From Myxococcales bacterium (GTDB lineage: Bacteria; Myxococcota_A; Polyangia; Polyangiales; Polyangiaceae): a stretch of 64,000 nt of DNA. Each line of letters begins with the position of its first letter. The first letter of the stretch is position 1. This document shows, one piece after another, positions 2,212 to 37,304 of the stretch. The notes under the pieces were generated by a model, which saw only the letters and a list, made by a program, of their open reading frames with translations, did no database searches and was not told the origin of the DNA. Location of the stretch: assembly GCA_016703425.1 (NCBI GenBank), contig JADJCA010000011.1, positions 378,050-442,049 on the forward strand, in the 5' to 3' direction. The translations under genes and the position numbers were made by a program.

Positions 2212-5200
2212 ATGAAGCGGCCGAGCGCTCTCGCCGCGTGGACCCTCGCTCTCGGTTTCTCCGCGTTCCCTTGCGGGGCCGAGGCCAGCACGAAGCCGGC
2301 GCGCCTCGCACGAATCGCTGAGCTGCGCGACGCGGCCGGTCGCGGCGCGCCACGCGCCTACGTCGCGTTGCGTGAGCTTTGGCAGGAGTGGGATCAGGGT
2401 GATCCGCGCGAAGTGGAAGAGGCGCTCCGCGACGTCGCCGCCGACAAGTCCATCGCGCCGCCCGTTCGAAGCTACGGCGCGCTGCTCGCTGCCTACGCGC
2501 GCCGCCGCCGCGGCGACCTCGACGGCGCCGAGAGCCAGATCAGAAAGCTCGGGTTCGTCTCGGCCTGGCAGGTCGTGGGCCCCTTCGACAACGAAGGCAA
2601 GACGGGCCTCGCCCGCGCCTTCGAGCCAGAGGTCAGCGCCGAGTCTCCCTCGGCGGCAAAGAGCTACGACGGCAAGGAGCGTCCGGTGCGGTGGCGGCTC
2701 CTTCCGAGCGGCGCGCCGTTCGGTTGGATTGATCTCGGCAACGTGATTCGACCCGCGGAAAAGGGCTGCAGCTACGCGTCGACGTACGTCCGCGACAGAA
2801 CGCTGGCGGACGGGAAGAGTCGCGCCATTTCGCTGTGGGCGGGGAGCGCCGGAGCCTTCAAGCTCTTCTGGAACGGGCAAGAGGTCATGGTCGACCCCAA
2901 GTACCGCTCGCTCGACGCTGACCGGCAGGCCGCCGCGGTGGTCCTCGAAGGCGGCTGGAACCGGCTGCTCGTCAAGGTGTGCGGCGAAGAAGACGCGCCG
3001 CTCTTCTCGGTGCGACTCGCCGACGACAAGGGCGCGCCCGACGAGCGGCTCGAAAGCAGCGGAGACGCCGCCCACCACGCGGCCGCAGCGACGAAGAAGG
3101 GCAGGCGCGCGCCTTCGCTCCTCGCCGGCCCCATCGACGCCTTCGAGCGCGCGGCAAAGGGCGAGAGCGCCGAGGCCCTCGAGGCCTACGCGCGCTACCT
3201 GGTCTTGTCGTTGGCCGACGACCCGGCGGAGCGAAAGGCCCGCGAGCTGGCTCGAAAGGCCGCCGAGCGCGGGCCGTCGGTCTCACGCTTGCTCCTTGCC
3301 GGCGAGCTCGCCGAGAGCCGCAATCAGCGGGCCCAATGGATCGAGCGCGCCGAGGCGATGGTCGCCAAAGGCGGCGCCACGGGCGGCGTCTCGGAGCGCG
3401 ATCGCATCGCCGTCTTGCACGCGCGAGCCGCGCACGCGCGGAGCGGCGTGTATTTCCGCGACGCGATGCCCTTCTACGATCGCATCCTGGCGCAAGATCC
3501 CGACGACGTGACGGCGCTCTTGGCCCGCTTCGAGCTCTACCTCGAGGCCGACCTCGCGAGCACGGCGACGACGCTGCTGGAACGCGCCGTGACGAGAAGG
3601 CCGCGAAGCGTGGCGCTCCTGCGCGCGCTCGCGTCGTCGCTGCGGCAGCAAGGCCGCGTCGCCGAGGCCACAGAGATCGAAGAGCGCTACGCCCAGCTCC
3701 GCTTCGACGACCCCGGTTACCTGCGGGACCGCATCGAATTGGCCGTCGCACGCCGCGACAAGGCGTCCGCCGCGCGCCTCCGCGAACGACTCATGAGGGT
3801 CATGCCCGATCACTTGCCCACGCTCCTTTGGGTCGCGCGGAGCGCCCTCCAGCTCGGCGAGCCGGAGCGGGCGCTCCCCCTCCTCAGGCGATGCCTCGAG
3901 CTTGCCCCCGAAGACATCGACGCGCTCCGCGCCTTGGCCGACGCAAACTCGGTCCTCGGCAAGCGCGACGAGCAACTGGCGCTGCTCCGTAAGGTCTTGG
4001 TCCTCAAGCCTCAGGCGAAGGAGGTCCGCGAGTACCTCTCGCAGCTCGAGCCGGAGCGGCCCAGGCCCGATGAAGCCTACGCGCGCCCCTCCAGCGAGTT
4101 CCTCAAGCTGCGCGGAGCGCCGGCCGACGGCGCAAGTCAGCGGACGCTCTCCAGCCTGCGAGTCACCACGGTGTACCCGAACGGCCTCGCGAGTCGCTTC
4201 AACCAGCTCGTGTGGCAGCCGCTGACGGAGAGCGCCGCCCAGGAGGCGCGCCAATACGCGTTCACCTACGAAGCCGACAGCGAAACGGTGCAGCTGCGCG
4301 GCGCACGCGTCTTTCGCAAGAGCGGCGCCGTGGAGGAGGCCGTCGACGTCGGCGAGGGCCCGGCCAACAACCCCGCCATGGTGATGTACACCAGCGGCCG
4401 CACCGTTTACGTGCGCTTTGCACGCGTCGAGGTGGGCGATGTCGTAGAGCTTCGCTACCGACAGGAAGACGTCAGCGCCCGCAACGCCTTCGCCGACTAC
4501 TTCGGCGAGGTCACGACCTTCCCGTCGAACGAGCCCGTGGCGCGCGCCGAATACGTGCTCATCACGCCGAAGTCCCGCACGTTCCATTTCAACGAGCCTC
4601 GCGTCGCGGGCCTCAAGCGAACCTCCACAGAAGGCGGGAGCGAGCGCATCGACCGCTTCGTGGCCGAGAATCTGGCGCCGCTCCCTCCTGAGCCGCTGCA
4701 GCCGCCTTACAGCGAGCTCTTGGGGTACGTGCACGTCTCGACCTACAAGTCGTGGGAAGACGTGGGCCGCTGGTACTGGGGCCTCGTCAAAGATCAGTTC
4801 GTCGCCGACGACGAGGTTCGCCGCCGCACGCAGGAGATCACCAAGGGCCTCACGGATCCGCGCGCCAAAGTGAAGGCGGTCTACAACTGGGTCGTCCAGA
4901 AGACGCGCTACGTCGCCCTGGAGTTCGGCATCCACGGCTTCAAGCCCTACCGCTGCGCCCAAATTTTCGCGCGAGGCTTCGGCGACTGCAAAGACAAGGC
5001 GACGCTGATCGTGACCATGCTGAAAGAGCTTGGGATCCCGGCCACCATCGTCATCGTGAGGACCGGCATGCGCGGCGACTTCGACGAGAAGCCGGCGAGC
5101 CTCGCGCCGTTCGATCACGCCATCGCTTACGTGCCGAGCATGGACCTCTACCTCGACGGCACCGCCGAATGGACCGGCTCCTCGGAGCTTCCAGCCATGG

Positions 5201-5901
5201 ACCGGGGAGCGTTGGCGCTTCAGATCAACGAGGGAAACGCGAAGCTCGTCCGCTTGCCCGACGCGCCCGCCGCGGAGAGCGTCTCATCCAAGACCATCGA
5301 GGTGAACCTCGAAGCCGACGGCAAGGCAACCATCGACCTCCGCGCCGAGGTCACCGGCGTTTCTGCGCCAGGTTTTCGCGAGCGCTACCACGCGACCTCG
5401 ACGCGCAAGGCTCGCTTGCAGGAGGATCTGTCGCAGGAGGTCCCGGGCCTCGAGGTCGCCGCCGTCGAGGCCAACGACCTCTTGAACCTCGAGGAGAAGG
5501 TCTCGCTCCGGGTTCGCGGCAAGTCGTCGATCGTGGGAAAGCGAGAAGGCGACCGCTTGAGCCTCGCCGTGGGTCCGCGCGAGTCCATGGTCCGCGACTA
5601 CGCGGCCCTCTCGCGGCGCTCGACGGACCTCAGGTTGCGCGCCCGCTCGACCACCGAACAAGCTTGGAAGGTGAAGCTGCCGCCGGGCATGAAGGTGGCC
5701 GACCTGCCGGCGGCCCAAAGCGGGACGACCCCCTTCGGCAGCTACCGGCTACGCGTCGAACAGACCGGCAACGTCGTCTCCGTCAGCACGACGGTCACGC
5801 TCGACAAGAGCCGCATCAAGGCCTCGGAATACGGGGCGTTCCGCACGTTCTGCGAGAGCGCCGATCGCGCGCTCGGTCAACGGCTCGTGCTCGCCCGATG
5901 A
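2212..5901 (+). CDS. Secreted TPR / DUF3857 / transglutaminase-like protein with an intact catalytic triad
   Basis: ATG at 2212 gives signal peptide MKRPSALAAWTLALGFSAFPCGAEA. N-terminal TPR-like repeats, DUF3857-like segment (VVELRYRQEDVSARNAFADYFGEVTTF), and transglutaminase core GFGDCKDKA...FDHAIAYV...LDGT (Cys-His-Asp). Confidence 0.75.
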   Translation: MKRPSALAAWTLALGFSAFPCGAEASTKPARLARIAELRDAAGRGAPRAYVALRELWQEWDQGDPREVEEALRDVAADKSIAPPVRSYGALLAAYARRRRGDLDGAESQIRKLGFVSAWQVVGPFDNEGKTGLARAFEPEVSAESPSAAKSYDGKERPVRWRLLPSGAPFGWIDLGNVIRPAEKGCSYASTYVRDRTLADGKSRAISLWAGSAGAFKLFWNGQEVMVDPKYRSLDADRQAAAVVLEGGWNRLLVKVCGEEDAPLFSVRLADDKGAPDERLESSGDAAHHAAAATKKGRRAPSLLAGPIDAFERAAKGESAEALEAYARYLVLSLADDPAERKARELARKAAERGPSVSRLLLAGELAESRNQRAQWIERAEAMVAKGGATGGVSERDRIAVLHARAAHARSGVYFRDAMPFYDRILAQDPDDVTALLARFELYLEADLASTATTLLERAVTRRPRSVALLRALASSLRQQGRVAEATEIEERYAQLRFDDPGYLRDRIELAVARRDKASAARLRERLMRVMPDHLPTLLWVARSALQLGEPERALPLLRRCLELAPEDIDALRALADANSVLGKRDEQLALLRKVLVLKPQAKEVREYLSQLEPERPRPDEAYARPSSEFLKLRGAPADGASQRTLSSLRVTTVYPNGLASRFNQLVWQPLTESAAQEARQYAFTYEADSETVQLRGARVFRKSGAVEEAVDVGEGPANNPAMVMYTSGRTVYVRFARVEVGDVVELRYRQEDVSARNAFADYFGEVTTFPSNEPVARAEYVLITPKSRTFHFNEPRVAGLKRTSTEGGSERIDRFVAENLAPLPPEPLQPPYSELLGYVHVSTYKSWEDVGRWYWGLVKDQFVADDEVRRRTQEITKGLTDPRAKVKAVYNWVVQKTRYVALEFGIHGFKPYRCAQIFARGFGDCKDKATLIVTMLKELGIPATIVIVRTGMRGDFDEKPASLAPFDHAIAYVPSMDLYLDGTAEWTGSSELPAMDRGALALQINEGNAKLVRLPDAPAAESVSSKTIEVNLEADGKATIDLRAEVTGVSAPGFRERYHATSTRKARLQEDLSQEVPGLEVAAVEANDLLNLEEKVSLRVRGKSSIVGKREGDRLSLAVGPRESMVRDYAALSRRSTDLRLRARSTTEQAWKVKLPPGMKVADLPAAQSGTTPFGSYRLRVEQTGNVVSVSTTVTLDKSRIKASEYGAFRTFCESADRALGQRLVLAR

Positions 5902-6302
5902 CGTTCCGCGCGGCCTCCCCCGCTTGCCCCGCCTGCGGCGCGCTCGTGTCGAGCCGCGTCCTGTTCGACGTCGCCGTTCTGCGATGCCCGTCGTGCAACG
6001 GCGCCTGGCTCGATGGCTTGGCGATGACCGCCGCTTCGCTGGATCGCCGTGAGCCGCGCGCGTCGGCCCTTCGCGCCCTTCCCTGTGTGCGCTGCGGCGC
6101 TCCGCTGACGGAGCCCGACGGCCTTCACGAGCTCGCTGCTTGCGGCGCCGGCTGCGGCGTCTTCGTCCCGGCGGCCGCGGCGGACGCGCTGCTCTCGCGC
6201 ACGGGACACGGCACGCTCCCGCCACCGGCGCCGCACCTCGTCCGTATCTTGGCTATCGTCCGCGCGCTCGAGCGCGAACCCCGAAGCGAGTCCCCATCAT
6301 GA
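5898..6302 (+). CDS. Double zinc-ribbon protein (CPAC..CPSC and CVRC..CGAGC)
   Basis: 134 aa. ATG overlaps the upstream stop (ATGA at 5898-5901) and its own stop overlaps the downstream ATG (6299-6302). Four CxxC-type pairs. Confidence 0.6.
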   Translation: MTFRAASPACPACGALVSSRVLFDVAVLRCPSCNGAWLDGLAMTAASLDRREPRASALRALPCVRCGAPLTEPDGLHELAACGAGCGVFVPAAAADALLSRTGHGTLPPPAPHLVRILAIVRALEREPRSESPS

Positions 6303-9300
6303 GCCGTCCCCGCCACCCACGAGCGCTTACCGTTTCCCGCGTTCTGCTCGCCGTGCTCGCCACAGCCACCAGCGTCGGCTGCGCCGGCGCCGCTGCCGAC
6401 GGAAGCGCGAAGACCTCGGCAGAGTCCTCGAGAGCCGTTCGGTCGCTCGCCACGCTCCGCGAAGACGCGGGCGACGGGGCTGAGGCCCTTGGCCTGTTGG
6501 CCCTGGGAGAGATGATCTTGCCGGGCGGGGATCGCACAAGAGCCGTGAGCGCGATCCAGCGACTCGAACAAGACGGCGCGCGCGGCCACCTCGCGGCGCT
6601 CGCGCGAGGCCTCCACGCCGAGATGCACGGCCGCCCCACCGCCGCCGCCGACGCGTACGTGCAGGCGCTCCTGGCCGCGAAGGAGAGCGCCGAAGAAGAC
6701 GTCGCTGTCACCGCGTGGTTCGCGGCGCACCGTATCGGGCAGTTGCGGTCGAGCGTCGCGGGTGTCCTCGAGAAGTACCGACGCGTCTTCGAGGCGCTCA
6801 CCGTGGCGCCGGGCCAGCTCGGGTGGCGGGCCGTCGCCGAGCTCCTCGACTTCACGCTCGCCGCCGAACAAGCGAAGGCCGAAGGAGAAGGCGCCGCGGC
6901 CGCCGAACGCATCGCGGCGCGCGTCGGCTGCGCAAGGCCGGTTCGACTGGCGGGCCCCTTCGGAGCTGGGAACGCCGCGTCCCGACGACGCCACTACGCG
7001 GCGGAGCGTCCCGGACCTTGGCCGCCAGTATTCGCCGACGATCCCATCCGAGGCACCACGCCTCGCGTCCTTCGGACGGACCAGCCGCGCTGCCACGCCA
7101 CGGCTGCCGAGGAGACCGAGGCCGGCGTCTTCTACGCGGAGACCTTCTTCACCGCCGCCGAAGAGACGGATCTCATCGTCGCCGCGCAAGGTGCGCTGGC
7201 CGTCTTCATCAACGACGCCCCGGTCCTCGATCGCGATCTACGTGAATGGGGCGTGTGGCAGCGCTTCGGCGCCCGCATCGTCGTTCCCAAGGGTCGCCAC
7301 CGCGTCGTCGTCCGCTTGCTCGGCGACGGCACGACGCTGCGATTTCTTCGCCCCGACGGCCGCCCCGCCGCCGTCACCACCGACGGCGATCCTGAGAAGG
7401 CCTACTCATCGGTGCCGGCCCGGGTGCTCGCCGATCCCAACCCCATCGACGCCATCGTGCGACGTCGCGGCGAGAAGGACGGGCTCCGCGCCTTCTTCGC
7501 CGCCTACGTCGCGCACGTCGAGTCGATGGACGACGTGGCCGCCGCGCTCCTCGAGCCGCTCGTCTTGCCGGAGGACGCCGCCGGCATCGCGCTGGAGCTG
7601 GGCGCGCTCTACGCGCGCGGCGACACCGCGTACCCCGACGACGCCAAGCGCCGGAATGAACGCGGCCTTCGGACGCGGGCCGCGGCGCGCGACCCGGGCC
7701 TTTGGTACTCGCGGGCGTGGCTCGCCATCGACTCCGGTGAGCAACGGGGCGGCGTCGAGGCGGTCGTGCCGCTCTTGGCGCTCTCACGAGAATTTCCCGA
7801 AGTCCCCGACGTGGCCGAAGGGCTCGCGCGCCTCTACGGTCGCCTCGGCTGGCGCGGCGAGCGGCTCGCGACGCTGAAGACGATTGGCGCGCGGTTCCCC
7901 GACGACACCTCGGGCCTTCGCATGCTGCTCGCGGCCCTCGACGAGGAGGGCCCGCCGGCGGAGGCCGACGCGCTTGCCGCCCGAATCCAGAAGCTCGACC
8001 CGGACGCCGAGTTGGCGGTCGACCGCGCGCTCGCGAAGCACGATTTCCAAGGCGCCATCGCGGAGCTTCGCCGCATCCAGAAGCGGCGCCCCGACAAGAA
8101 GGACCTCGCGGGCCGCATCGCGCAGGTCCTCGAACAAAGCGGCGATCCCGCGGCAGCGGCCAAGCAGCTCGCGCTCGCGCTCGAGCGCGACCGCAACAAC
8201 GCGAAGGCGCGCTTTCGCCTCGCCGACCGGGCGCTGGCCCGCGGCGATGAGGCGGCGCTTCGTCGTGCCCTCGCCGAATCGCTCGAGGCCGGCGCCGCAA
8301 CGAGTGATCTGCGCGACGCCATCGCGCTCGTCGAAGGCGCCACGCACCTTGAGGGCTACCGCATCGACGGCCGCGCCGTGCTTCGCGAATTTGATCGCTG
8401 GGAGAAGAGCGGCAAGAAGATGGATGGCACCGCGGCGCGCATCCTCGACTACGCGGCCCTCTGGGTTCATCCCGACGGGACGAGCGAGATGCTCGAGCAC
8501 GAGATCCAGCGCATCCAGTCGCAAGAGGCCGTCTCGAAGGAGGCCGAACAGCCGCCGCCGGAAGGCCTCGTCTTGCGCATGCGGGTCATCAAGAAGGACG
8601 GCAGCGTCCTTGAGCCCGAGCTCGTGGCCGGCAAGCCCACCGTGACGATGCCTCACCTCGAGATCGGCGACGTCGTCGAGACCGAGCGCATCATCCAGAC
8701 GAGCAGCGACGGCGACCCGCGGCGGTATCGAAGCCCGCACTGGTTCTTCCGCGAAGCCGACAAGGGCTATTGGCGGAGCGAGTTCGTGACCGTCACGCCG
8801 AAGGGCAAGGCCCTCGAGATCGAGACCCGCGGCAAGGTGCCGGCGCCGACCAAGAGGTCGCTCGGCGCCTTCGTCGAGCACCGCTTCCGCGTCGACGAGA
8901 GCCCGCCGGCGGTCATCGAACCGGATGCTCCGCGGCCCGTGGAGTTCCTTCCGAGCGTACGCATCGGTTGGGGCATCGATCTCGAGTCGACGCTCTTGCG
9001 CCTCGTCGACGTTGGCACCGACGAGACACCGCTCGACCCGCGCCTCGGCGCCATCGCCGCCACCATCGTCCGCGACGCGCCGGCCTCCGATCCGATGGAG
9101 CGGGCGCGACGCGTCTACCGATGGGTCCTGTCGGCCGTCGAAGAGGGCAACGAGAACGACGGGCGCCGCGCCGTGCTCGCGCGACGTGGCAGCCGCCAAG
9201 CTGCGTTCGTGCACTTGGTCCGGCAGCTCGGAATGAACGTCTCGCTCGCCATCGCGAAAAACCGCCTGGCGATGCCCGCGCTCGGAAAGATGAGCGAGGT

Positions 9301-10129
9301 CGAAAATTGGGACAGCTTGGTGTTGCGCCTCGAGCCTCCCAAGAACGCGACGAAGGCGCCGCCTCCCGCGCAGTGGATGGTCGTGCGCGACAAGTTCACC
9401 CCCTTTGGCTTCGTGCCTCCCGAGCTCCGAGGGCAACAGGCCATCGTGCTCGCCGCCGGCGCGCCGCGCGTCACCTTGCCGAGCGAGGGCTCCTCCGACG
9501 GGGTCTTCTTCGAAGGGCGCGCCGTCGTCCGGGAAGACGGCGGCGCGAGCCTCGAGCTCGCGCAACGATACGGCGGTCGCATCGCGACGCAGATGCGCGG
9601 CGTGCTCGATCGCATCGCGCCGGGCCAGCTACGCGATTTCGTGGAGACGCGCCTCGTCGGCCGGACCTTCTCCGGCGCGCGTATCAAGGACGTTGTCGTC
9701 GAACACAAGGACGATCTCGACCTCCCGATCACCATCCGCGTCACAGCCGACGTCCCTGAGCTCGTGCGACGCGGCGAACGAACGAGCGTCCTCAAGCCGG
9801 TTTTTCCCATCAAGCTCGTCCAACTCGCTTCGCTTCCGGCGCGAGAGACGCCGCTGCTCTTGCCGACGTCGTCGCACGCCGAGGTCCTGTTCAAGGTCGT
9901 CTTTCCCGAAACGTGGCGGATGCCGTCGAGCCTTCCGCCGGGCGAAGTGAAGGACGGCGAGCGCTGGGTCACAGTCAACGACCGTGTCGAAGGGCACACC
10001 ATCACGCTCGACCGGAAGGTCGAGGTGCCCGCGGGGCGCGTCGCGCCCGGCGGCGACTACGCCGCGCTCCTCAAGTTCACGCGCGACGGCGACGCGCTCC
10101 TCGAACGCGAGGTCGCCGTCGGACGGTGA
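6299..10129 (+). CDS. Secreted lipoprotein, TPR / DUF3857 / transglutaminase-like paralog with degenerate (catalytically dead) core
   Basis: ATG 6299 gives MSRPRHPRALTVSRVLLAVLATATSVGC, a lipobox. Same architecture as 2212..5901, but the transglutaminase Cys position reads RGSRQAAF and the His position reads NWDSL, so the triad is lost. The 1329-aa ORF's upstream extension is Arg-rich read-through. Confidence 0.7.
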   Translation: MSRPRHPRALTVSRVLLAVLATATSVGCAGAAADGSAKTSAESSRAVRSLATLREDAGDGAEALGLLALGEMILPGGDRTRAVSAIQRLEQDGARGHLAALARGLHAEMHGRPTAAADAYVQALLAAKESAEEDVAVTAWFAAHRIGQLRSSVAGVLEKYRRVFEALTVAPGQLGWRAVAELLDFTLAAEQAKAEGEGAAAAERIAARVGCARPVRLAGPFGAGNAASRRRHYAAERPGPWPPVFADDPIRGTTPRVLRTDQPRCHATAAEETEAGVFYAETFFTAAEETDLIVAAQGALAVFINDAPVLDRDLREWGVWQRFGARIVVPKGRHRVVVRLLGDGTTLRFLRPDGRPAAVTTDGDPEKAYSSVPARVLADPNPIDAIVRRRGEKDGLRAFFAAYVAHVESMDDVAAALLEPLVLPEDAAGIALELGALYARGDTAYPDDAKRRNERGLRTRAAARDPGLWYSRAWLAIDSGEQRGGVEAVVPLLALSREFPEVPDVAEGLARLYGRLGWRGERLATLKTIGARFPDDTSGLRMLLAALDEEGPPAEADALAARIQKLDPDAELAVDRALAKHDFQGAIAELRRIQKRRPDKKDLAGRIAQVLEQSGDPAAAAKQLALALERDRNNAKARFRLADRALARGDEAALRRALAESLEAGAATSDLRDAIALVEGATHLEGYRIDGRAVLREFDRWEKSGKKMDGTAARILDYAALWVHPDGTSEMLEHEIQRIQSQEAVSKEAEQPPPEGLVLRMRVIKKDGSVLEPELVAGKPTVTMPHLEIGDVVETERIIQTSSDGDPRRYRSPHWFFREADKGYWRSEFVTVTPKGKALEIETRGKVPAPTKRSLGAFVEHRFRVDESPPAVIEPDAPRPVEFLPSVRIGWGIDLESTLLRLVDVGTDETPLDPRLGAIAATIVRDAPASDPMERARRVYRWVLSAVEEGNENDGRRAVLARRGSRQAAFVHLVRQLGMNVSLAIAKNRLAMPALGKMSEVENWDSLVLRLEPPKNATKAPPPAQWMVVRDKFTPFGFVPPELRGQQAIVLAAGAPRVTLPSEGSSDGVFFEGRAVVREDGGASLELAQRYGGRIATQMRGVLDRIAPGQLRDFVETRLVGRTFSGARIKDVVVEHKDDLDLPITIRVTADVPELVRRGERTSVLKPVFPIKLVQLASLPARETPLLLPTSSHAEVLFKVVFPETWRMPSSLPPGEVKDGERWVTVNDRVEGHTITLDRKVEVPAGRVAPGGDYAALLKFTRDGDALLEREVAVGR

Positions 10130-10199: not shown

Positions 10200-10901
10200 C
10201 TACTTGGCCGGAACGCCCGCGTCGCCAGCGACGGGAGCGGCCGGCGCCGAGCCCGGCGGCGCCGCGAGGCCGTTGATGCGCTGTCGCACGCCGACGTAGG
10301 CCGCGTCGAGCTTGGCCCACTCGTCGACGAGTCGAAGCCGCTCGGTCGCCGACTGCGGATAGACGCCGCCGTCTTTGGTCTTCGCGAGCTCGCTGTACCG
10401 CCGCCAGAGCTCTTTGGCCTCGTCCCACTTGTGGAGGCGCTCCTTGGCGCTGGCGAGCACGAACACGATGCGCGGCTTCGTCGCCGCCGTTTGCGGAGCC
10501 GCGTCGTCGGCCACCATGAGCGCCGCCTCCGCGTCCTCGGTCTTGCCTTTGGCCAAGAGCGCCTCGCCGAGCGCGTATTGCGCGACGGCACTGCGCGGCT
10601 GAAGCTTCACGGCCTTGCGGAAGGCCAGGAGCGCGCCTTCTGAGTCGCCGTCGACCCATTTCTTGGTCCCATCGACCACCGACGCCATGGCCTCGCTCAT
10701 GGCGGTCTGGTTGTTCGCGTCGAATCGCTTGGGCGCGTCAGCCGCCTTGTCGGCCTTCTCGACCTTGTCCGTCTTGTCGGACTTTTCCGCCGTCTTGTCG
10801 GCCTTCTTCGGGTCCTTGGAGTCGGCCTCGGCGGTCGTCCAAACGAAGGCGACGGAGGCTGCAAGGAGCGTGGCAACGAGGGTGCGAGCGCGCGGCAACA
10901 T
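10200..10901 (-). CDS. Secreted hypothetical protein with K/D-rich low-complexity region and TPR-like C-terminal half
   Basis: 233 aa with signal peptide MLPRARTLVATLLAASVAFVWTTAEA, then KDPKKADKTAEKSDKTDKVEKADKAADAPK repeats, then TPR-like helices. Confidence 0.6.
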   Translation of the reverse strand: MLPRARTLVATLLAASVAFVWTTAEADSKDPKKADKTAEKSDKTDKVEKADKAADAPKRFDANNQTAMSEAMASVVDGTKKWVDGDSEGALLAFRKAVKLQPRSAVAQYALGEALLAKGKTEDAEAALMVADDAAPQTAATKPRIVFVLASAKERLHKWDEAKELWRRYSELAKTKDGGVYPQSATERLRLVDEWAKLDAAYVGVRQRINGLAAPPGSAPAAPVAGDAGVPAK

Positions 10902-10969: not shown

Positions 10970-11698
10970 TTGCAAGCCTTGGAAATCGCCCCGAAGATCT
11001 CCCGAATGCTGCCCCGTGTCCTCGAACCCGAGATCATGGACACGGCCCTCGACGCCGCCGACTACGACGCCATGGATCACGGCGCCGTGAACGAGGCCTT
11101 CTGCCGTGATTTTCTCGCGGCACGCCCTCAGTTGGCGTGCGTATTGGACGCGGGCACCGGCACCGGGCTCATCGCCGTGGAGCTTTGCCGCCGCGCGCCC
11201 GCGGCGAACATCGTGGCCATCGACCTTGCCAACGAGATGCTCGCGCTGGCGAAGAAGAACGTTCAGGCCGCGGGCTACGCCGACCGCATCGAAGTGGCGC
11301 GACGCGACGCGAAGCGAACAGGCTTCGACGACGGCGACTTCAGCGCCGTGATCTCCAACAGCCTCGTGCACCACCTGCCGGAGCCCGGAGCTTTTCTCAA
11401 GGAGGCCGCGCGGCTCCTCGCGCCGGGTGGGCTCCTCTTCGTGCGCGACCTCGCGCGCCCCGAAGACGAGACCGCCGTGTCGTCGCTCGTCGACCGATAC
11501 GCGCTTGTCACCGCCACGGACCCGACGCTCCGCTCACGGGAGTCGCGGCAACGAGCGCTCTTCGCGGCGTCGCTTCGAGCGGCGCTCACGTGCGACGAGG
11601 TGTCGGCCCTGCTGCCCGACGCGCTTCGGGTCGGGGCTCGCGTCGAGCTGACGAGCGATCGTCACTACACGCTCGTCGCGCGGAAGGCGCGTGCGTGA
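10970..11698 (+). CDS. Class I SAM-dependent methyltransferase
   Basis: VLDAGTGTGLIAVEL (motif I), DFSAVISNSLVHHL, LLAPGGLLFV. An alternative start at 11006 (MLPRVL) is possible. Confidence 0.75.
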   Translation: MQALEIAPKISRMLPRVLEPEIMDTALDAADYDAMDHGAVNEAFCRDFLAARPQLACVLDAGTGTGLIAVELCRRAPAANIVAIDLANEMLALAKKNVQAAGYADRIEVARRDAKRTGFDDGDFSAVISNSLVHHLPEPGAFLKEAARLLAPGGLLFVRDLARPEDETAVSSLVDRYALVTATDPTLRSRESRQRALFAASLRAALTCDEVSALLPDALRVGARVELTSDRHYTLVARKARA

Positions 11699-12828
11699 GC
11701 CGCGTCCGCGCGTTTCCGTGGGCCACGCTCGACGCTCTCACGAAAGCCGAGGTCGCGCGCGCGCGCCACTTCGGCGACTTCATCGCGCACCTGCTCGCGA
11801 CCAGCACGAGCGCTCGCGCCGCGACGCTCCGGGGCCTGTTGGGGGTTTCCCCCGAGGTTCGGCTGCGCGCCATCGACAGCGCGGCATCCGCGAGCGCGCC
11901 TGACGACGAGCGCCTCGCGGTGCACCTCCTCGTCGCAAAGACCGAAGTCATCGTCGAGACGGAGAGCGCGCTCGCGGCCGACGTGGTGGCGCGGGCTCTC
12001 GAACGAAAGGGACCGTCGCTCCCGCCGCGGGGCACGGCGGCGCTCGCCGGCGCCTTCGGTGCTGTCGCGGTGAGCGCGCTGAGGCGCCTCCGAGCGGACG
12101 CCGACGTTCGTCTCAAGTTCGCCGGACTGTCCAAGGACGTCCTGGCGAGGCAGTCTCTGGCGGACCCCGTCGCGGCCCACGTCACGGTGCTCCTCGACGC
12201 GGACGCTTACGACGCCCGTCTCGTCTTTTCGTCCCGAGCAGCAGGAAGCGTTGGCGCGCGACCCGTAGGACGGCGCGCCCTCGCGGCGCTCGACGTTCGA
12301 ATCGCCGTGCCCCTCACCTTGGCGCCCTCGTGGGCGCCGGCGCGCGAGCTTCGTGCGCTCGCGACGGGCGACGTCTGGCTGACGGGAGGCCGCTCGACGG
12401 CGCTGTCCTTCGTCCTGGCCGCGCCGGGCGCGCGCCGCGGCGTGCGCTGCACGGCCACGGCTGGGCTGGCTCTAGGCGTGCGCGACGTGGCTGCGGCATC
12501 GTTCCAAGTCGTGGTAGGGGACGTAGTCGAGGATTTGACGATGAGCGAAGCGACGGAAGACACCCTCCTCGAATCGGCCCTCGACGCACCGGTGATCGTT
12601 CGCGTCGAGCTCGGCGCCGTCGAGCTGTCGGCCCGCGAGTGGGCGAGCCTGCGCGCCGGCGATGTGGTGACCGTTGGCGCTCGCGTGGGCGCGCCCGTGC
12701 TCCTCCGCGCGGGCTCTCGCGAGCTAGGCACCGGCGAGCTCGTCGACATCGACGGCGAGGTCGGTGTCCGTGCCCTTTCGATGCGCACCTCGACGCCGCA
12801 ATCGGCTTCTTTGGAGGGCGGCGCTTGA
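11695..12828 (+). CDS. SpoA (FliN/SctQ-like) domain protein, orphan
   Basis: GTG at 11695 overlaps the upstream stop (GTGA). The C-terminus PVIVRVELGAVELSAREWASLRAGDVVTVGARVGAPVLLRAGSRELGTGELVDIDGEVGVRAL matches the surface-presentation-of-antigens fold of FliN/YscQ. Size (377 aa) fits SctQ. Confidence 0.55.
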   Translation: MSRVRAFPWATLDALTKAEVARARHFGDFIAHLLATSTSARAATLRGLLGVSPEVRLRAIDSAASASAPDDERLAVHLLVAKTEVIVETESALAADVVARALERKGPSLPPRGTAALAGAFGAVAVSALRRLRADADVRLKFAGLSKDVLARQSLADPVAAHVTVLLDADAYDARLVFSSRAAGSVGARPVGRRALAALDVRIAVPLTLAPSWAPARELRALATGDVWLTGGRSTALSFVLAAPGARRGVRCTATAGLALGVRDVAAASFQVVVGDVVEDLTMSEATEDTLLESALDAPVIVRVELGAVELSAREWASLRAGDVVTVGARVGAPVLLRAGSRELGTGELVDIDGEVGVRALSMRTSTPQSASLEGGA

Positions 12829-18617: not shown

Positions 18618-21473
18618 ATGTGGACAACCCTTCCTCTCTTTGGGACCGGCCTGCTCCTCACGGTCATGTTGGTGGCCAGCTACACGTTCGCCGTGTCGCT
18701 CGCCGCGCACGCCGACGGCAAGCCTCGGACGCTTCAGGCGGCTCGTTTCGGCGCCTACGGAGTCGTGATCCTCATCCTGACGACGGTGCTGGTCTTGGCC
18801 TACGCCTTCGTGAGCCACGACTTCCGACTGCGCTACGTCGCGCACTACTCGGACCGGTCGATGTCCACGCCGTACCTCTTCACGGCGCTCTGGGGCGGCC
18901 AAGACGGCTCGCTCTTGTGGTGGCTCTTCCTCTTGTCGCTCTACATCGGAGCGTGCGTGAAGTGGCTCGGCCGCCGCTTCCTTGAATTGCAGCCCGCGAT
19001 CTTGGCGACGTGCATGGCCGTCGTCCTGTTCTTCGCGGTGTTGATGACCTTCAGCGCGAATCCCTTCAGCACGAGCATCGCCGGCGCGAGGCCCGACGGC
19101 GAAGGCCTGAACCCGCTGCTCCAGAATTTCTACATGATCATCCACCCGCCGAGCCTCTACGTGGGCTTCGTCGGGTGCACGATCCCCTTCGCGTTCGCCG
19201 TCGCCGCGCTCGTCACCGGCCGCCTCGACACCGAGTGGATCGTCGCCAGCCGCAAGTTCACGCTCTTCTCGTGGCTCTTTCTCGCCATCGGCAACACGCT
19301 CGGCATGCTCTGGGCCTACGAGGAGCTCGGCTGGGGCGGCTATTGGGGCTGGGACCCGGTCGAGAACGCGGCCTTCATGCCGCTCTTGTCGGCGAGCGCG
19401 TTCGTGCACTCGGTCATGATCCAAGAGCGCCGGGGTCTCTTCAAACTCTGGAACGTGTTCCTCGTGTCGCTCACGTTCCTGATGACCATCTTCGGAACGT
19501 TCCTCACGCGCTCCGGCGTCATCGCCAGCGTGCACTCGTTCGCGCAATCGTCCATCGGCAACTACTTCGTCGGCTTCATGGTCGTCCTCGTGGCGTTCCT
19601 CATGACGCTCGTGCTCTACCGGTGGCCCGAGCTCCGCGACTACCCCAAGGAGGCGCGCCTTCGCAAAGCCGCCATGGCCACCGGCTGGACGGTTGTCGGC
19701 GTGGGCATCGCGGCTGGCTTGGTCCTCACCAACGTTCCCATGAGCGGCGCGGTGCGCGCCGCCATCGTGTCGGCCGTCGCCGCGGGGACCGTCTTTGCCT
19801 CCGTCGAGCTGGTGTTCCGCAAGATGACGGCGGGCCTCGACCTCTCGCATCGCCGCCCCGCCATCGAGTCGCTCTGGTCGCGCGAGTTCACCTTCGTCCT
19901 CAACAACTGGGGCCTGCTCGGCTTCATGTTGTTCGTGCTCGTGGCCACGACCTTCCCGATGATCTCGGAGGCCTTCTGGAACGAGAAGGTCACCGTCGGG
20001 CCGCCCTACTACAACGCGTGGGTTCAGCCCATCGGGCTCACGATCTTCTCGCTCATGGGCATCGGCTCACTCTTCGGATGGAAGAAGACGAGCGACGCGG
20101 CCCTCCGCAAGGCGTTCTTCTTCCCGAGCCTGACCTTCGTCGTCGTCCTCGTCCTCCACTTCGCCCTTGGCAGCCGCTTCGGTTACCCGGCCACGGTCTT
20201 CACGGACCCCATCTATCCCGGGCCCCTCGGGCAGGTGCTCCGCGCGTTCAACGGCATCACGCCGGTGCTCGGCATCTCGCTGTGCGCCTTCAACGCTGCC
20301 GTCATCGTGCAAGAGTTCGCGCTCCTCTTCGGCGCGCGCCGAAAGACCGGCGCCAACAAGGACGTGCCGAAGGCCCTCTTCTACGCCGGCTTCCTCCCGG
20401 GCTTCTTGATGACGCTCGTCACGTTGCCGCCTCCCTCGCGCCGTCGCTACGGCGGCTACGTGGTCCACTTCGGAATCACGATGATGTTCCTTGGCTTCAC
20501 GGGAGCGTCTTGGAACATCAACAAGGAGACGACGATGTCGCCGGGCCAGACCTACAAGGTCGACGCCTACGACCTTCAGTACGTCGGTCCGCGCATGGAG
20601 GTCGACACCTCGAAGCGCATGATCTTCGCCGACCTCCGCGTCCAGAAGAGCGGCAAGGACATGGGCCTCGTGACGCCGGCGAAGTTCATCTACAAGCGCC
20701 GCCCCGAGTCGCCGACCACGGAGGTCGCGATGCTCCACACCATCGCCGACGACCTCTACGTCGTGGTGGGCGCGATCAATCCGCAGACGAAGGTCGCGAG
20801 CCTGCAGATCCACGTCAACCCGCTCGTCGGGTGGATCTGGTTCGGCGCCATCATCCTCATCTTCGGCAGCGTCGTCTGCATGTGGCCCGAGCTCCGACCC
20901 AACGAGTCGCGGGCCTGGGCCGCGGCGCGCGGCGTGGCGGGCGCGGCAGCGAGCATCACGCTCGGGGTCGTCTTGGCCTCGATGCCCGCCCCAGCCTTCG
21001 CGCAGAGCGCTGGCAACGGCACCGCCGGCGCCTCGAGCCTCCACTCGGGCACCGTGAAGATCGAGAACGCCGAGGAGCGCGACCTCTTCGGAAAGCTGCG
21101 CTGCATGTGCGGCACTTGCCCGCGCGACCTCTTGTCGACCTGCGCGTGCGACACCGCCGAGGAGACCCGCGAGCGGCTGCGCGCGAGGCTCAAGGCCGGC
21201 GAGGCCAAAGACGCCATCATCTTGGCCTACGCGAAGGAGTACGGCTCCGCCGCGCTCTCCATTCCGCCGAACACGGGCGCCATGCGTGCCATCTACATGG
21301 TGCCCGTCGCCGCGATCGTGGCTGGCGCCGCCGGCGTCGTGGTGCTCATGCGTCGCTGGCGCAAAGGCGAGGGCGCCGCCGCCGCTCCGAAGGACAGCGC
21401 GGGCGCGACAAAGGACGCCAAAGACGAGTACGATCGCCGCCTCGACGACGAGCTGAGGGAGCTCGATGACTGA
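18618..21473 (+). CDS. ccmF: Cytochrome c maturation protein CcmF fused to a CcmH-like C-terminal domain
   Basis: CcmF hallmarks (WGGYWGWDPVEN, heme-handling His residues, about 15 TM helices), followed by LRCMCGTCPRDLLSTCACD (CcmH LRCxxC thiol motif) and a final TM helix. Confidence 0.85.
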   Translation: MWTTLPLFGTGLLLTVMLVASYTFAVSLAAHADGKPRTLQAARFGAYGVVILILTTVLVLAYAFVSHDFRLRYVAHYSDRSMSTPYLFTALWGGQDGSLLWWLFLLSLYIGACVKWLGRRFLELQPAILATCMAVVLFFAVLMTFSANPFSTSIAGARPDGEGLNPLLQNFYMIIHPPSLYVGFVGCTIPFAFAVAALVTGRLDTEWIVASRKFTLFSWLFLAIGNTLGMLWAYEELGWGGYWGWDPVENAAFMPLLSASAFVHSVMIQERRGLFKLWNVFLVSLTFLMTIFGTFLTRSGVIASVHSFAQSSIGNYFVGFMVVLVAFLMTLVLYRWPELRDYPKEARLRKAAMATGWTVVGVGIAAGLVLTNVPMSGAVRAAIVSAVAAGTVFASVELVFRKMTAGLDLSHRRPAIESLWSREFTFVLNNWGLLGFMLFVLVATTFPMISEAFWNEKVTVGPPYYNAWVQPIGLTIFSLMGIGSLFGWKKTSDAALRKAFFFPSLTFVVVLVLHFALGSRFGYPATVFTDPIYPGPLGQVLRAFNGITPVLGISLCAFNAAVIVQEFALLFGARRKTGANKDVPKALFYAGFLPGFLMTLVTLPPPSRRRYGGYVVHFGITMMFLGFTGASWNINKETTMSPGQTYKVDAYDLQYVGPRMEVDTSKRMIFADLRVQKSGKDMGLVTPAKFIYKRRPESPTTEVAMLHTIADDLYVVVGAINPQTKVASLQIHVNPLVGWIWFGAIILIFGSVVCMWPELRPNESRAWAAARGVAGAAASITLGVVLASMPAPAFAQSAGNGTAGASSLHSGTVKIENAEERDLFGKLRCMCGTCPRDLLSTCACDTAEETRERLRARLKAGEAKDAIILAYAKEYGSAALSIPPNTGAMRAIYMVPVAAIVAGAAGVVVLMRRWRKGEGAAAAPKDSAGATKDAKDEYDRRLDDELRELDD

Positions 21474-23699: not shown

Positions 23700-24095
23700 C
23701 CTTTCTTCGCACAAACGGCCTGTGGGTAAGCCTTGGAGTTGAGGGGGGAGCATCCCGTGGATTCCGGTGGGGGAAAGTCTCTTGACTACATCTGCCCCCA
23801 TCCGCCCCCAGTCATCCCACCTTCGACTCCACATGACATACACGGTCGATGTTTCTGATGTTCAATGGGATTTCGTGGCTGTCCACATTTCCACAGGCTC
23901 TATCAACACTTCTAGGATTTAAATCTCTAAGAAGATCTGGAGAGAAGAGCACCGCGCCCTCTCGCCCGTGAGGCAGCTCCAGTGGAGCCAAAACATGGGG
24001 TGCCGAGGCTTGCGTCCCGCCCAAATCGCGACGATGTAGGTGAGCCCGTCGCGAGCTTCCAAGAGCCGCCGTCCTGTCTCCGTCTTGCCTGAGGG
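23700..24095. other. Putative chromosomal replication origin (oriC)-like region upstream of dnaN
   Basis: Local GC drops markedly (ttctaggatttaaatctctaagaagatctgg). It contains DnaA-box-like 9-mers TGTCCACAT, TTTCCACAG, CATCCCACC and GGAATCCAC (rc), and sits immediately 5' of dnaN-recF-gyrB. Confidence 0.45.
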
Positions 24096-24099
24096 TCCC

Positions 24100-25239
24100 A
24101 TGCTGGAATTGTCGGTTGCGAAGAAAGATCTGCTGAAGCTCGTGAGCCGCGTGCAAGGCGTTGCCGAGCGCAAAAGCACGATGCCGGTTCTTTCCAACGT
24201 GCTCCTCACGGCCGACAGCTCGGGCACACTTCGCCTCTCCGCCACGGATCTCTACCTGGCGATCTCCGGCAAAATCGCGGCCGAAGTTCAGAAAGCCGGC
24301 AGCGTCGCCGTCCCCGCGAAAGATCTCTTCGAGCGCGTGAAGATGATGCCCGACGGTCCCGTGACCATCGCGTCGGGCGACAACGCTGCGACGACGCTCA
24401 AGGCCTCCGGCAGCGCGCGCCGGTACACGTTGCGCGGCATGCCGGGCGATGACTTTCCGCCGTTGCCGGCCGCCGCCGAGGGCGCGCCGTCGCTCGCGCT
24501 CGACGTGGCCGTGCTCCAAGAGCTGATCTCGAAGACGCACTTCTCAATCTCCACCGACGAAACGCGCGCGCACCTCAACTCGGCGCTCTTCGAGTGGGAC
24601 GGTGATGTCGTTCGCATGGTCACGACCGACGGACACCGCCTCTCGAAGATGGAGGTGAAGGTTCCCGGTCGACAGGCTTCGGCAACGATGCTCATCCCGC
24701 TCAAGGCCATCCACGAGCTGCGTCGCCTCGCCGACGACATGATGGGCGAGGCCGGCAAGGATCAAGACAAGCCGCAGATGCAGATCACGCAGAGCGGCTC
24801 GAGCGCGTTTTTCCAAGCGGGCACCACGAGCTTCAGCGTGAAGCTCGTCGACGCGCAGTTTCCGCCTTACGCCCAAGTCATTCCGCAAAACTCGGAGAAG
24901 CAGATCCGCGTGCCTCGCTCGGCCTTCGCCGACGCGCTCAAGGCCGTTGCCGTCGCCGCCAGCGAGCGCACGGGCGGCGTGAAGCTCTCGCTCGCGAAAC
25001 ACGCGATGCGAATCACCAGCGAGTCGCCCGAGACGGGCGATGGCTTCGATGAGATCGCGGTCGAATACGGCGCCGCGCCCATGACCGTTGGCTTCAACGC
25101 CAAGTACTTCCTCGACGTGCTCGCCGCGCTCGATGAGGACGAGGTCGTCTTGTGCCTCTCCGGCGAGCTTGACCCCGCCGTGGTGAAGCCCAACAGCGCG
25201 CGCGAGTTTCTGGCCGTCGTGATGCCGATGCGCATCTGA
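24100..25239 (+). CDS. dnaN: DNA polymerase III beta sliding clamp
   Basis: MLELSVAKKDLLKLVSRVQGVAERKSTMPVLSNVLL... has three-domain clamp architecture. GAGGG lies 5 nt upstream of the ATG at 24100. Confidence 0.9.
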   Translation: MLELSVAKKDLLKLVSRVQGVAERKSTMPVLSNVLLTADSSGTLRLSATDLYLAISGKIAAEVQKAGSVAVPAKDLFERVKMMPDGPVTIASGDNAATTLKASGSARRYTLRGMPGDDFPPLPAAAEGAPSLALDVAVLQELISKTHFSISTDETRAHLNSALFEWDGDVVRMVTTDGHRLSKMEVKVPGRQASATMLIPLKAIHELRRLADDMMGEAGKDQDKPQMQITQSGSSAFFQAGTTSFSVKLVDAQFPPYAQVIPQNSEKQIRVPRSAFADALKAVAVAASERTGGVKLSLAKHAMRITSESPETGDGFDEIAVEYGAAPMTVGFNAKYFLDVLAALDEDEVVLCLSGELDPAVVKPNSAREFLAVVMPMRI

Positions 25240-25241
25240 CG

Positions 25242-26438
25242 ATGGAGGCGGCTATCGAGATCGGTGACCGGCCGCTCGAGACGCGCGCCAACGATGGCGA
25301 GCAAAAGAGCCCGCTGATCATCGAGACGATTTCGCTGCGCGGCTTCCGAAACCTGAGCGACGTCGATCTCGCGCCGTCGCCGCGCTTCAACGTCATCGCC
25401 GGCGATAACGGTCAAGGCAAGACGAACATCCTCGAGGCCATCTACCTCGGCGGCACGACGCGGAGCTTTCGCACGACGAAGCTGGCGGAGGTCGTCGGGC
25501 ACCACAAGACGCTCGCGACGTCGAAGCTCGTCGTTCGTGAAGGGCCTTCCGAGCACGACATCGCCCGAGAGCAGGTGGTCGGCCTCCAAGGTGGCGCCCG
25601 CTCGGTCAAAGTGGATGGCAAGAGACCCGCGTCGCTGGCGGCTTATGCCATCAAGACGCCGGTCGTCGTGTTTCACCCCGGCGAGGTGGCGCTCTCGCAG
25701 GGGCCCAGCGGAGAGCGACGTCGCCTCCTCGATAGAGCCGGACTCTACGCGGCGCCGGGCTCGTTGGCCGATGCCGATGCCTACGCTCGCGCGATCCGTG
25801 AGCGTCAACGCGCGCTCGAGACGCGCGGCGCCATGGCTCGCGATTTGGACCAGTGGGAGGCGCTCGCGGTGCGTCACGGCATGAGCATCATGGGCGTTCG
25901 TCGTCGCGCCAGCGAGGCGCTGCTCACCGCGGCGGAGCGCGCCTTCCGACGCATCGCCGCGCCCGACCTCACGCTCACGGGAGCCTTCGCGCCGAGCGCA
26001 CCGGAAGACGAGACCGCGTACCTGAAGGCGCTCTGGGAGAGCCGCGCCGTCGACATGCGGAGAAAGAGCGCGAGCATCGGACCGCATCGCGACGAGCTCG
26101 CGCTCTTCATCAACGGGCACGCCGTTCGTGGGACCGCATCGCAAGGGCAGCACCGCGCGCTCGTGCTCGCGCTGAAGGCCGCCGAGATCGAGGTCATCGG
26201 GGATGCGCGTGGCGCGAGACCGATTCTCCTGCTCGACGACGTCTCGAGTGAGCTCGACCGGGAGCGGACGCGCGCGCTCATGGCGTTCTTGCGCGACCTC
26301 GAGGGGCAGGTCTTTTTGACGACGACGCGGCCGGAGCTCATCGTCCTCGGAGACGCCGAAGGTCTCTCCTTTGGCGACGAAACGCGGCGCGATTGGACCG
26401 TCCGCGAGGGCGCCATCGCGACGGCAGTAAATACCTGA
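25242..26438 (+). CDS. recF: DNA replication and repair protein RecF
   Basis: Walker A GDNGQGKTNILEAI and the signature/Walker B region LLLDDVSSELD. It immediately follows dnaN. Confidence 0.85.
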   Translation: MEAAIEIGDRPLETRANDGEQKSPLIIETISLRGFRNLSDVDLAPSPRFNVIAGDNGQGKTNILEAIYLGGTTRSFRTTKLAEVVGHHKTLATSKLVVREGPSEHDIAREQVVGLQGGARSVKVDGKRPASLAAYAIKTPVVVFHPGEVALSQGPSGERRRLLDRAGLYAAPGSLADADAYARAIRERQRALETRGAMARDLDQWEALAVRHGMSIMGVRRRASEALLTAAERAFRRIAAPDLTLTGAFAPSAPEDETAYLKALWESRAVDMRRKSASIGPHRDELALFINGHAVRGTASQGQHRALVLALKAAEIEVIGDARGARPILLLDDVSSELDRERTRALMAFLRDLEGQVFLTTTRPELIVLGDAEGLSFGDETRRDWTVREGAIATAVNT

Positions 26439-26451
26439 AATCAAAGCCTAA

Positions 26452-29088
<2,637 letters not shown>

Positions 29089-35196: not shown

Positions 35197-35202
35197 GGGT
35201 GT

Positions 35203-36245
35203 CTACTCGGCCGCCTTGACGGGGCGACCACCCTCGGCGCGAGCCTCGGAGGGTTGGATCAGGGCGAGGTAGCGAAGGATCGGGTCGGCGCCGGCAAGCC
35301 GATCGGCGCGGGCGGCGATGGCCGCTTGCGTGCGGATGGCCACCGAGTCACCGCGCTTCAGGTGCGCGACGGCGCGGGACGCGAGGTCTTTGATCTTGCG
35401 CTCGAAGAGGGCGTCCCACTCGGCGGTGGCCTCGCGAGGCCTCTCGAGCTCGAGCGGGAGCGTCACGTCGGGCCGAGCTTCCCGGGCGCGTTCTCGGATC
35501 ACCATCTGGCCGGTTGCGCTCTTGCGCCAATAGATGTCTCGCGGATCGTCGCCTTCGCGCATCGCCTTCAGACCGAGGAAGTCGGCGCTGGTCCCGGCGC
35601 CCATGGAGCCGTCGCCCAGGGCGGTGCGGCCTCCGGTGGCCACCGGCAGCTGCACGGCTTCGACGGCGGGATAGATGATGAGCTCGCCGGAGGCCTGGAG
35701 CTCGCGCGACTTTTCGAAGAGACCGAATGGGAACCGTGTGGCGATGCGGAAGCCGACGTGAACGTCGCGACCGCGCTTCGTGGGCGTTCGACGGTAGGCG
35801 GCTACCTGCGCCGATCGCGGGCTTATCTTCAGGAAGAAGCACCGCTTGTCGGCCGGTTGCCCCGCGCGAAGGTCTTCAACCTCGATGGCGTAGGAGGGAA
35901 CGCGGCCCTTGTTGTTGTAGACCTCGATTTCAACGAGGTGCGCTCGCCCGACCTGGGCGCGCTGCGGGAGCCGCCGCAAGACGCTCAGGTCTCGCAGCGA
36001 CAGCTCGCTCATGACGCCGCTCACGACGATGAGCGCGAGCAACATGCCGAGCAGCAGGTAGAGAAGTTGTTGGCGGTGTTGATGGCGGCGAAGCCAACGC
36101 CCAACGTGATGCCGACGAAGAACTTCCCCTCGCGGGTGAACTTCAGCCGGCGCGGCGGCCGGATGAAGCGCCGGAAGCGAGCGAGGAGCGAGCGCGGCGC
36201 GGCCGCATCACCTTGCGAGGGACTTTCGGGCCGCGATCCAGCCAT
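35203..36245 (-). CDS. DUF58 domain protein (interrupted by a single-base frameshift near 36063)
   Basis: N-terminal part (ORF 36021..36245: [29 protein letters not shown]) and C-terminal part (ORF 35203..36045: [17 protein letters not shown]...[11 protein letters not shown]) are contiguous in one protein family. Restoring one C in ttcctc rejoins them. Confidence 0.7.
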
Positions 36246-36254
36246 CTCTGTTGC

Positions 36255-37220
<966 letters not shown>

Positions 37221-37304
37221 GGACGCGAGCGTAGCACGATCGAGTGCCGTTCCTCGCCGCGCAACTTGCGCTGGTTTGGTGTCTCGAGGCACTGTCGCCC
37301 CCGC

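Follow-up and report, generated by a model that had tools for sequence, protein, structure and literature searches.

Organisation of the A-Z-B locus

The DNA analysed here is a 64,000-nucleotide (nt) stretch, hereafter the window, of contig JADJCA010000011.1 from a Myxococcales bacterium; its GC content is ~69% and its nearest kin are uncultured Polyangiaceae. Positions 2212-10129 hold three open reading frames (ORFs) on one strand, in the order A-Z-B, which an earlier reading of this DNA (the original prediction) had described as a translationally coupled triad of an active transglutaminase-like protein, a zinc-ribbon protein and a catalytically dead paralog. Our analysis points instead to a conserved dyad, A-B, in which a predicted live enzyme and an apparently long-dead paralog are encoded together, with Z as a local addition. 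The genes and their junctions are:

2212-5901, + strand: gene A, 1229 amino acids (aa); transglutaminase-fold cysteine enzyme, predicted to be Sec-exported and soluble
5898-5901, + strand: ATGA overlap of the A stop and Z start, 4 nt, read from the sequence
5898-6302, + strand: gene Z, 134 aa; double zinc-ribbon protein, predicted cytoplasmic
6299-6302, + strand: ATGA overlap of the Z stop and B start, 4 nt, read from the sequence
6299-10129, + strand: gene B, 1276 aa; predicted lipoprotein, apparently a catalytically dead full-length paralog of A

The ORFs and translations of all three genes agree with the earlier description, and the ATGA chaining it reported was found at both junctions. Third-position GC is 0.83-0.87 in each of the three frames. 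A promoter and terminator consensus scan of the window's 69% GC DNA gave nothing useful.

Gene A encodes a predicted active enzyme

The domains and putative catalytic residues of A map as follows (TPR, tetratricopeptide repeat):

2212-2289, + strand: signal peptide, signal-peptidase-I type, AEA/S
about 2542-3066, + strand: PA14/GH2-sugar-binding-like beta-sandwich
about 3109-4056, + strand: TPR region (Pfam)
4177-4680, + strand: DUF3857 (PF12969, 82.4 bits, cut-off 24.6)
about 4825-5241, + strand: transglutaminase core (PF01841, Transglut_core, 44.3 bits, cut-off 23)
4987-4989, + strand: Cys926, motif GDCKDKA
5116-5118, + strand: His969, motif FDHAIAYV
5155-5157, + strand: Asp982, motif LDGT
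about 5254-5898, + strand: DUF3858 (PF12970, 41.4 bits, cut-off 27)

By its score above the gathering threshold and its intact Cys-His-Asp triad, A belongs to PF01841. That the first large protein alone retains this triad, as originally claimed, was borne out: A carries all three motifs and B none of them. Cys926, His969 and Asp982 are unchanged in 121 close A homologs, across which RGFGDCKDKATL, APFDHAIAYVP and YLDGTAE are near-invariant, and the Cys, His and Asp motifs are also kept in 50/50 distant A-type metagenome ORFs scoring at least 300 bits. A search of PDB sequences with full-length A returned TPR matches only; the C-terminal half found a weak match to 3kd4_A (E 0.005). The conserved motifs predict that A is the active copy, acting as a cysteine protease, an amidase or a cross-linking enzyme.

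Gene B is a full-length paralog of A

A and B are full-length paralogs with a common six-part architecture: an N-helical region, a PA14/GH2-sugar-binding-like beta-sandwich, TPRs, DUF3857, a transglutaminase core and DUF3858. BLASTP aligns the two proteins collinearly over 814 aa at 23% identity (E 3e-5), and profile-profile comparison of the A family with the B family by hhalign gives a probability of 99.9-100% (E 2e-35 to 2e-53, 1000-1118 columns), the alignment spanning the N-terminal beta-sandwich through the C-terminus. The parts of B are:

6380-6382, + strand: lipobox Cys28, ...ATSVG-C28
6533-6925, + strand: N-helical region
6944-7384, + strand: beta-sandwich, with invariant Cys211/Cys265
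7448-8407, + strand: TPR, about 320 residues of helices in the model
8432-8971, + strand: DUF3857-like domain, the most conserved domain of B, with invariant His734 (8498-8500)
8981-9526, + strand: transglutaminase-like core, apparently dead, with Arg963, Ser1006 and Val1028 at the triad positions
9545-10126, + strand: DUF3858-like domain

Pfam detects the TPRs of B and places PF12969 (DUF3857) at 16.9 bits, under the cut-off, and the same scan gave no PF01841 match at E<=0.1; the homology of the B core to the A core is visible by profile-profile comparison only. An AlphaFold model of B residues 77-1276 (predicted local distance difference test 87.2, predicted template-modelling score 0.80) resolves into N-terminal helices, a beta-sandwich, TPR helices, and DUF3857-like (beta-rich), transglutaminase-like (alpha/beta) and DUF3858-like (beta) domains, and its top PDB match in Foldseek is 3kd4_A (E 5.4e-18, 615 aligned columns, target-normalised template-modelling score 0.61). 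The TPR/DUF3857-like/transglutaminase-like architecture that had been proposed for both large proteins thus holds up in Pfam (for A), in the profile-profile alignment and in the model of B.

Loss of the catalytic triad in the B family

At the positions of the A triad, B and its 120 close homologs carry the following residues:

Cys926 of A, Arg963 of B: S 73, T 20, A 16, R 7 among the 120 homologs
His969 of A, Ser1006 of B: A 46, S 36, G 21, N 15 among the 120 homologs
Asp982 of A, Val1028 of B: T 79, V 11, S 11 among the 120 homologs

For more distant relatives, B residues 690-1276 were used as a single query against 1.84 billion cluster representatives, yielding 1186 relatives, 278 of these at E<=1e-30. 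The 107 full-length distant relatives, at 27-60% identity, have one and the same three-residue deletion in the nucleophile loop ('G---[S/N/H]R'), and the His is missing from every one of them. The Cys motif occurs in 0/82 B-type metagenomic ORFs, and the triad is missing in every B-type homolog examined, down to 25-27% identity. Since the same deletion and the missing His are found in all 107 distant relatives, B was inactivated in a single ancient event, with the dead state maintained ever since.

The original prediction had left it to be checked whether the second protein is conserved as dead; it is, in the 120 close homologs, the 107 distant ones and the 82 metagenomic ORFs. That prediction had also named, as evidence against itself, B homologs with a catalytic Cys at an offset position, and a search for these found no such homolog. 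An alternative offset nucleophile in B was rejected on the same comparison, the transglutaminase-like region having no conserved Cys or His in either the close (120) or the distant B families.

Loss of the triad has not gone along with a general loss of constraint. Mean column identity is 60-62% in the B family versus 65% in the A family, and DUF3857 conservation is 0.81 in both proteins. The transglutaminase core, at 0.90 the most conserved domain of A, stands at 0.69 in B, which is average for B, and Gly964, Arg966 and Leu973 are the sole deep invariants surviving in the dead core. The deep B-specific invariants (Asp717, His734, Glu743, Lys765, Asp767 and Glu796) all lie in the DUF3857-like domain. 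Taken together, B is under maintenance and not decaying, its constraint having moved within the protein.

In A there is nothing equivalent to the charged cluster formed by these six DUF3857-like residues; the dead paralog may have gained it as a binding site or a metal site.

Predicted localisation of the gene products

Export signals had been claimed for both large proteins and both were found, of the signal-peptidase-I type in A and as a lipobox, SVG-C28, in B. Across the A family the cleavage sites are of AxA type, without a conserved Cys. The lipobox Cys of B is kept in 105/120 close homologs and is invariant in 30 distant ones, a lipobox-like motif is present in 58/62 full-length metagenomic B-type ORFs, and B orthologs translated from the overlap start have typical lipoprotein signals at the N-terminus, which predicts that B is a bacterial lipoprotein. 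The beta-sandwich holds an invariant Cys pair in the A family and in the B family; such pairs would fit an oxidising compartment. Z is without a signal peptide.

A and B are linked across deep divergence

A species-level genome collection scanned with the B-family alignment returned 80 loci, from metagenome-assembled genomes of Polyangiaceae, Labilithrix or 'Myxococcales' plus Labilithrix luteola, and linkage was counted in the 67 with sufficient upstream DNA. A lies immediately upstream of B on the same strand in 64/67, and in 55 of these 64 linked loci the A stop and B start share a 4-nt [A/G/T]TGA overlap (ATGA 31, GTGA 22, TTGA 2). Aligned members of the distant B-like clade, used to scan metagenome contigs, gave a distant set of 80 further loci. 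Here an A-type ORF is immediately upstream of B in 51 of the 59 loci with sufficient upstream DNA, with an overlap of 4 nt in 34 of the 51 linked loci and of 8 nt in 6; in these distant pairs, identity to the window proteins is down to about 37% for A and 27% for B. The pair is also found in the cultured species Labilithrix luteola (locus L013) and Pendulispora albinea (with overlap).

In the complete chromosome OZ245328.1, A and B are both present and lie ~680 kb apart. A retains its upstream neighbour, a UbiA-family gene (see below), and B its downstream methyltransferase and FliN-like genes, which indicates that a rearrangement breakpoint fell between A and B, with both genes retained.

The conserved overlap suggests that A and B are translationally coupled, and the comparison as a whole that the A-B dyad is a conserved unit across Polyangia-type myxobacteria.

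Gene Z is restricted to one sub-clade

The 134-aa protein with two zinc ribbons described between the large genes is indeed there. Z matches PF13453 (27.2 bits, cut-off 22), and its eight Cys form two CxxC...CxxC ribbons (Cys10/13/30/33 and Cys63/66/82/86). An alignment of five homologs has 7/8 Cys invariant, the eighth being displaced by one residue in the window protein, and the tail is a conserved PPP-helix. The first ribbon resembles the PF13453 zinc ribbon of PDB 8YOZ, a 'transcription factor zinc-finger domain-containing protein' (8yoz_A, E 9e-5), but Z differs from it in having two ribbons and the PPP-helix tail and in lying between two exported-protein genes. We found no literature citing PDB 8YOZ.

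Relatives of Z form only two clusters in 5.8 billion proteins, and Z is missing from 62/64 linked genome loci. The carriers belong to the window's sub-clade only: the window itself, P0241 (a 96% identical cluster), P0242 (49% identity), L001, L004 and P0002. At L004 both the A/Z and the Z/B junction are ATGA, as in the window. Z identity is 47-49% where A and B are at ~70%, so Z diverges much faster. Most loci have the A stop overlapping directly with the B start, without room for Z, which by its distribution appears to be a lineage-specific insertion, a local add-on between A and B. Of the proposed three-gene unit of enzyme and pseudoenzyme, then, the live enzyme with its conserved dead paralog stands, and the triad as a unit does not, as Z is found in this sub-clade only.

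Three loci of the distant clade (L152, L157 and L161) have A and B separated by an unrelated insert of some 1.3 kb; with Z in addition, the A/B junction has therefore been invaded more than once, independently. The L157 insert (6507-7794) contains two ORFs, one of 168 aa that has a signal peptide and one of 244 aa, antisense, that looks uracil-DNA-glycosylase-like by eye.

In P0002, a Joint Genome Institute metagenome protein of 1372 aa, Z and B are called as an in-frame fusion, real or an annotation artefact, which makes the lipoprotein signal of B internal (…KRLGMVALLLATGVGC…).

A UbiA-family gene adjoins A

The operon is bounded by two genes:

1095-2081, - strand: UbiA-family gene, decaprenyl-phosphate phosphoribosyltransferase-like (NF008978, 210.9 bits, cut-off 207), divergent from A
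10200-10901: convergent TPR gene, bounding the operon downstream as the UbiA gene does upstream

The UbiA-like gene adjoins A in 49 close loci and stands beside A in 15 of about 33 informative distant loci, where none of the other tested neighbours of A was detected. It stays with A where the A-B pair is split, and is also found in Pendulispora albinea. It is a possible functional associate, and so a candidate third partner.

A proposed role for the non-catalytic paralog as partner of A

We put at about an even chance the reading that A is an envelope enzyme and that B, its non-catalytic lipoprotein paralog, serves as its partner. A would be an exported soluble protein that does the chemistry through its Cys-His-Asp site, and B an ancient duplicate of A, without the nucleophile loop, His and Asp and with a newly acquired lipoprotein anchor. 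The stop/start overlap would lead to B and A being produced in step, and B would bind A in a physical complex, probably by the homologous TPR or DUF3857 scaffolds. As a membrane-tethered subunit, B might then position A, recruit its substrate or activate it. The sugar-binding-fold domains in A and B, together with the phosphoribosyltransferase neighbour, hint at a glycan-bearing component of the envelope as the target, which is speculative. A more specific version, in which B is an obligate lipoprotein 'prozyme' that tethers and switches on A, the heterodimer processing or cross-linking a glycan-bearing envelope component that needs the UbiA-like enzyme for its synthesis, is tentative, and we would regard it as possible though rather unlikely.

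Parts of this arrangement have counterparts in known systems. BDI_1141 of Parabacteroides distasonis (PDB 3KD4, 'putative protease') is the prototype of the DUF3857/transglutaminase-like/DUF3858 module and the basis of both DUF definitions; the Pfam models matched by A were built from it and the C-terminal half of B, some 600 aa long, can be superposed on it, but 3KD4 is a stand-alone protein of 505 aa without the N-helical, sugar-binding-fold and TPR regions. We know of no enzyme/pseudoenzyme pairing for 3KD4. With the PF01841 cysteine protease superfamily (e.g. TgpA) A shares the core domain and the Cys-His-Asp triad, but proteins of the TgpA type cross the inner membrane several times and are encoded in MoxR/DUF58 operons, unlike A, which is predicted to be soluble and exported, has six domains and is paired with a dead paralog.

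Two kinds of partnership are closer in logic. Erythrocyte band 4.2 is a dead transglutaminase that serves as a non-catalytic, membrane-associated scaffold. Trypanosomatid AdoMetDC is activated by a catalytically dead paralog, the 'prozyme' (PMC5201418). Like AdoMetDC and prozyme, A-B would be a live enzyme and a paralog retained together, the partner conserved as dead; prozyme and band 4.2, in contrast, are eukaryotic and encoded by unlinked genes, whereas A-B is a bacterial, apparently coupled operon in which the dead copy is a predicted lipoprotein. NlpI-Prc is a pair of a TPR lipoprotein adaptor and a soluble periplasmic protease that depends on the adaptor for activity or targeting. In a similar pair the TPR lipoprotein LbcA activates the periplasmic protease CtpA (PMC8764530, PMC11021448). 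B is likewise a TPR-rich predicted lipoprotein and a candidate partner of a soluble exported protein, but neither LbcA nor NlpI is related to its protease, a serine C-terminal processing enzyme in both cases, whereas B, the candidate adaptor, is a paralog of transglutaminase-fold A. A-B belongs to neither the prozyme nor the LbcA-CtpA system; by analogy, it may work like both.

Several observations weigh against a partnership of A and B. Coupling is not obligatory: the original prediction had held that genes unlinked in related genomes would tell against it, and A and B, linked in 64/67 genome and 51/59 distant loci, are indeed unlinked in the remaining 3/67 and 8/59, with other genes between them in 3 distant loci. 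The entire neighbourhood is syntenic among close relatives, so that linkage there partly reflects shared ancestry and would be weak evidence if alone; the linkage argument is carried by the distant set and the conserved overlap. A mirror-tree comparison of distances, with UbiA, the aminotransferase and CcmF as controls, gave r 0.955 for A-B (partial r 0.73), no better than r 0.948 for B-CcmF (partial r 0.85), and so does not discriminate. Finally, with the deep constraint on B sitting in its DUF3857-like domain, an independent binding function there is conceivable.

This last point leads to the alternative that A and B act in one pathway without forming a complex, B being an independent non-catalytic lipoprotein (for instance a receptor, an adhesin or a scaffold) whose DUF3857-like, TPR or sugar-binding-fold domains bind a ligand, and co-transcription reflecting shared regulation only. 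The deep invariants of B are not on an obviously A-related surface, B occurs without an adjacent A in 8/59 distant loci, both genes were kept when the pair was split in OZ245328.1, and the 3kd4 prototype is itself encoded as a stand-alone 505-aa protein, all of which would agree with such a role; a 4-nt overlap in 55/64 and 34/51 loci over deep divergence, however, exceeds the needs of co-regulation, and A and B hold the same six-domain architecture at near-equal length over the whole divergence. We find this alternative doubtful, if conceivable.

A role for B as decoy or inhibitor (a substrate mimic or latency factor) that holds A in an inactive state at the membrane, pending a release signal, seems distinctly unlikely to us. 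Coupled synthesis, a dead active site and a membrane anchor would fit it equally, and Gly964-x-Arg966 is conserved at the former nucleophile loop; but inhibition and activation fit the data alike, and the weak conservation (0.69) of B's former active-site region argues against a precise substrate-mimic surface.

Two further explanations are essentially excluded. A three-subunit complex of A, Z and B with enforced co-translation of all three would accord with the ATGA at both junctions in the window and in L004 and with the one contig (P0002) in which Z is fused in frame to B, but it is very improbable, since Z lacks an export signal where A and B are exported, making such a complex topologically unlikely, and since Z evolves far faster than they do (47-49% versus ~70% identity). 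That B is a decaying duplicate without a function of its own, as the loss of all three catalytic residues and its larger mean distance (0.52 versus 0.44 for A) might suggest, we rejected on the depth of its conservation, with intact ~1250-aa B ORFs in every locus examined, 278 representatives at E<=1e-30, a high-confidence AlphaFold model and a DUF3857-like domain conserved as in A, and we give this explanation next to no credence.

What is already known of these families is their annotation as 'DUF3857 domain-containing protein' and 'tetratricopeptide repeat protein'; the pairing and the dead family are undescribed in the literature found. Our searches returned nothing on A-B pairing in myxobacteria, on the dead B family or any function of it, or on bacterial transglutaminase-like pseudoenzymes, and two unrelated papers were the only ones to name DUF3857, in passing. 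To our knowledge, pairs of an enzyme and a dead paralog are much studied in eukaryotes and seldom documented in bacteria, and a crystal structure of the DUF3857/DUF3858 module has been available since 2009, with no function known to us. A-B would be a bacterial case of such a pair, kept as a coupled operon through deep divergence, and could serve as a clean system for learning the role of a transglutaminase-fold pseudoenzyme and as a first handle on the DUF3857/DUF3858 module. It also suggests that a myxobacterial class which is little studied and matters to biotechnology may possess an envelope-remodelling activity; cultured hosts exist (Labilithrix luteola DSM 27648 and Pendulispora species). 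If the prozyme reading were true, A-B would be an unrecognised envelope-remodelling system restricted to Polyangia-type myxobacteria and the first bacterial transglutaminase-fold enzyme/pseudoenzyme complex.

Other features of the window

Further features lie downstream of the operon:

11137-12828, + strand: ORF with a FliN/FliM C-terminal domain, a conserved downstream neighbour across Polyangia loci
11640-11733, - strand: ARAGORN tRNA-Val(CAC), 94 nt, overlapping the 3' end of the methyltransferase ORF 10970-11698
18618-21473, + strand: CcmF-CcmH fusion, a conserved downstream neighbour across Polyangia loci
24040-29088, + strand: dnaN, recF and gyrB, consecutive
33010-35196, - strand: second, unrelated transglutaminase-fold gene of the TgpA type (TgpA_N, Transglut_core and DUF4129)
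35203-36045, - strand: ORF without a Pfam match, upstream of the TgpA-type gene
36255-37562, - strand: MoxR AAA_3 ATPase, upstream of the TgpA-type gene

An Rfam scan of the window at gathering thresholds found no tRNA and no other RNA family, and the ARAGORN call is therefore probably a false positive. The cumulative GC skew has its minimum near 28-30 kb, which together with the dnaN-recF-gyrB genes suggests that the window spans the chromosomal replication-origin region; the A-B operon lies about 15-20 kb from this apparent origin. The gene order at 33010-37562 is what we take to be the classical MoxR/DUF58/TgpA arrangement.

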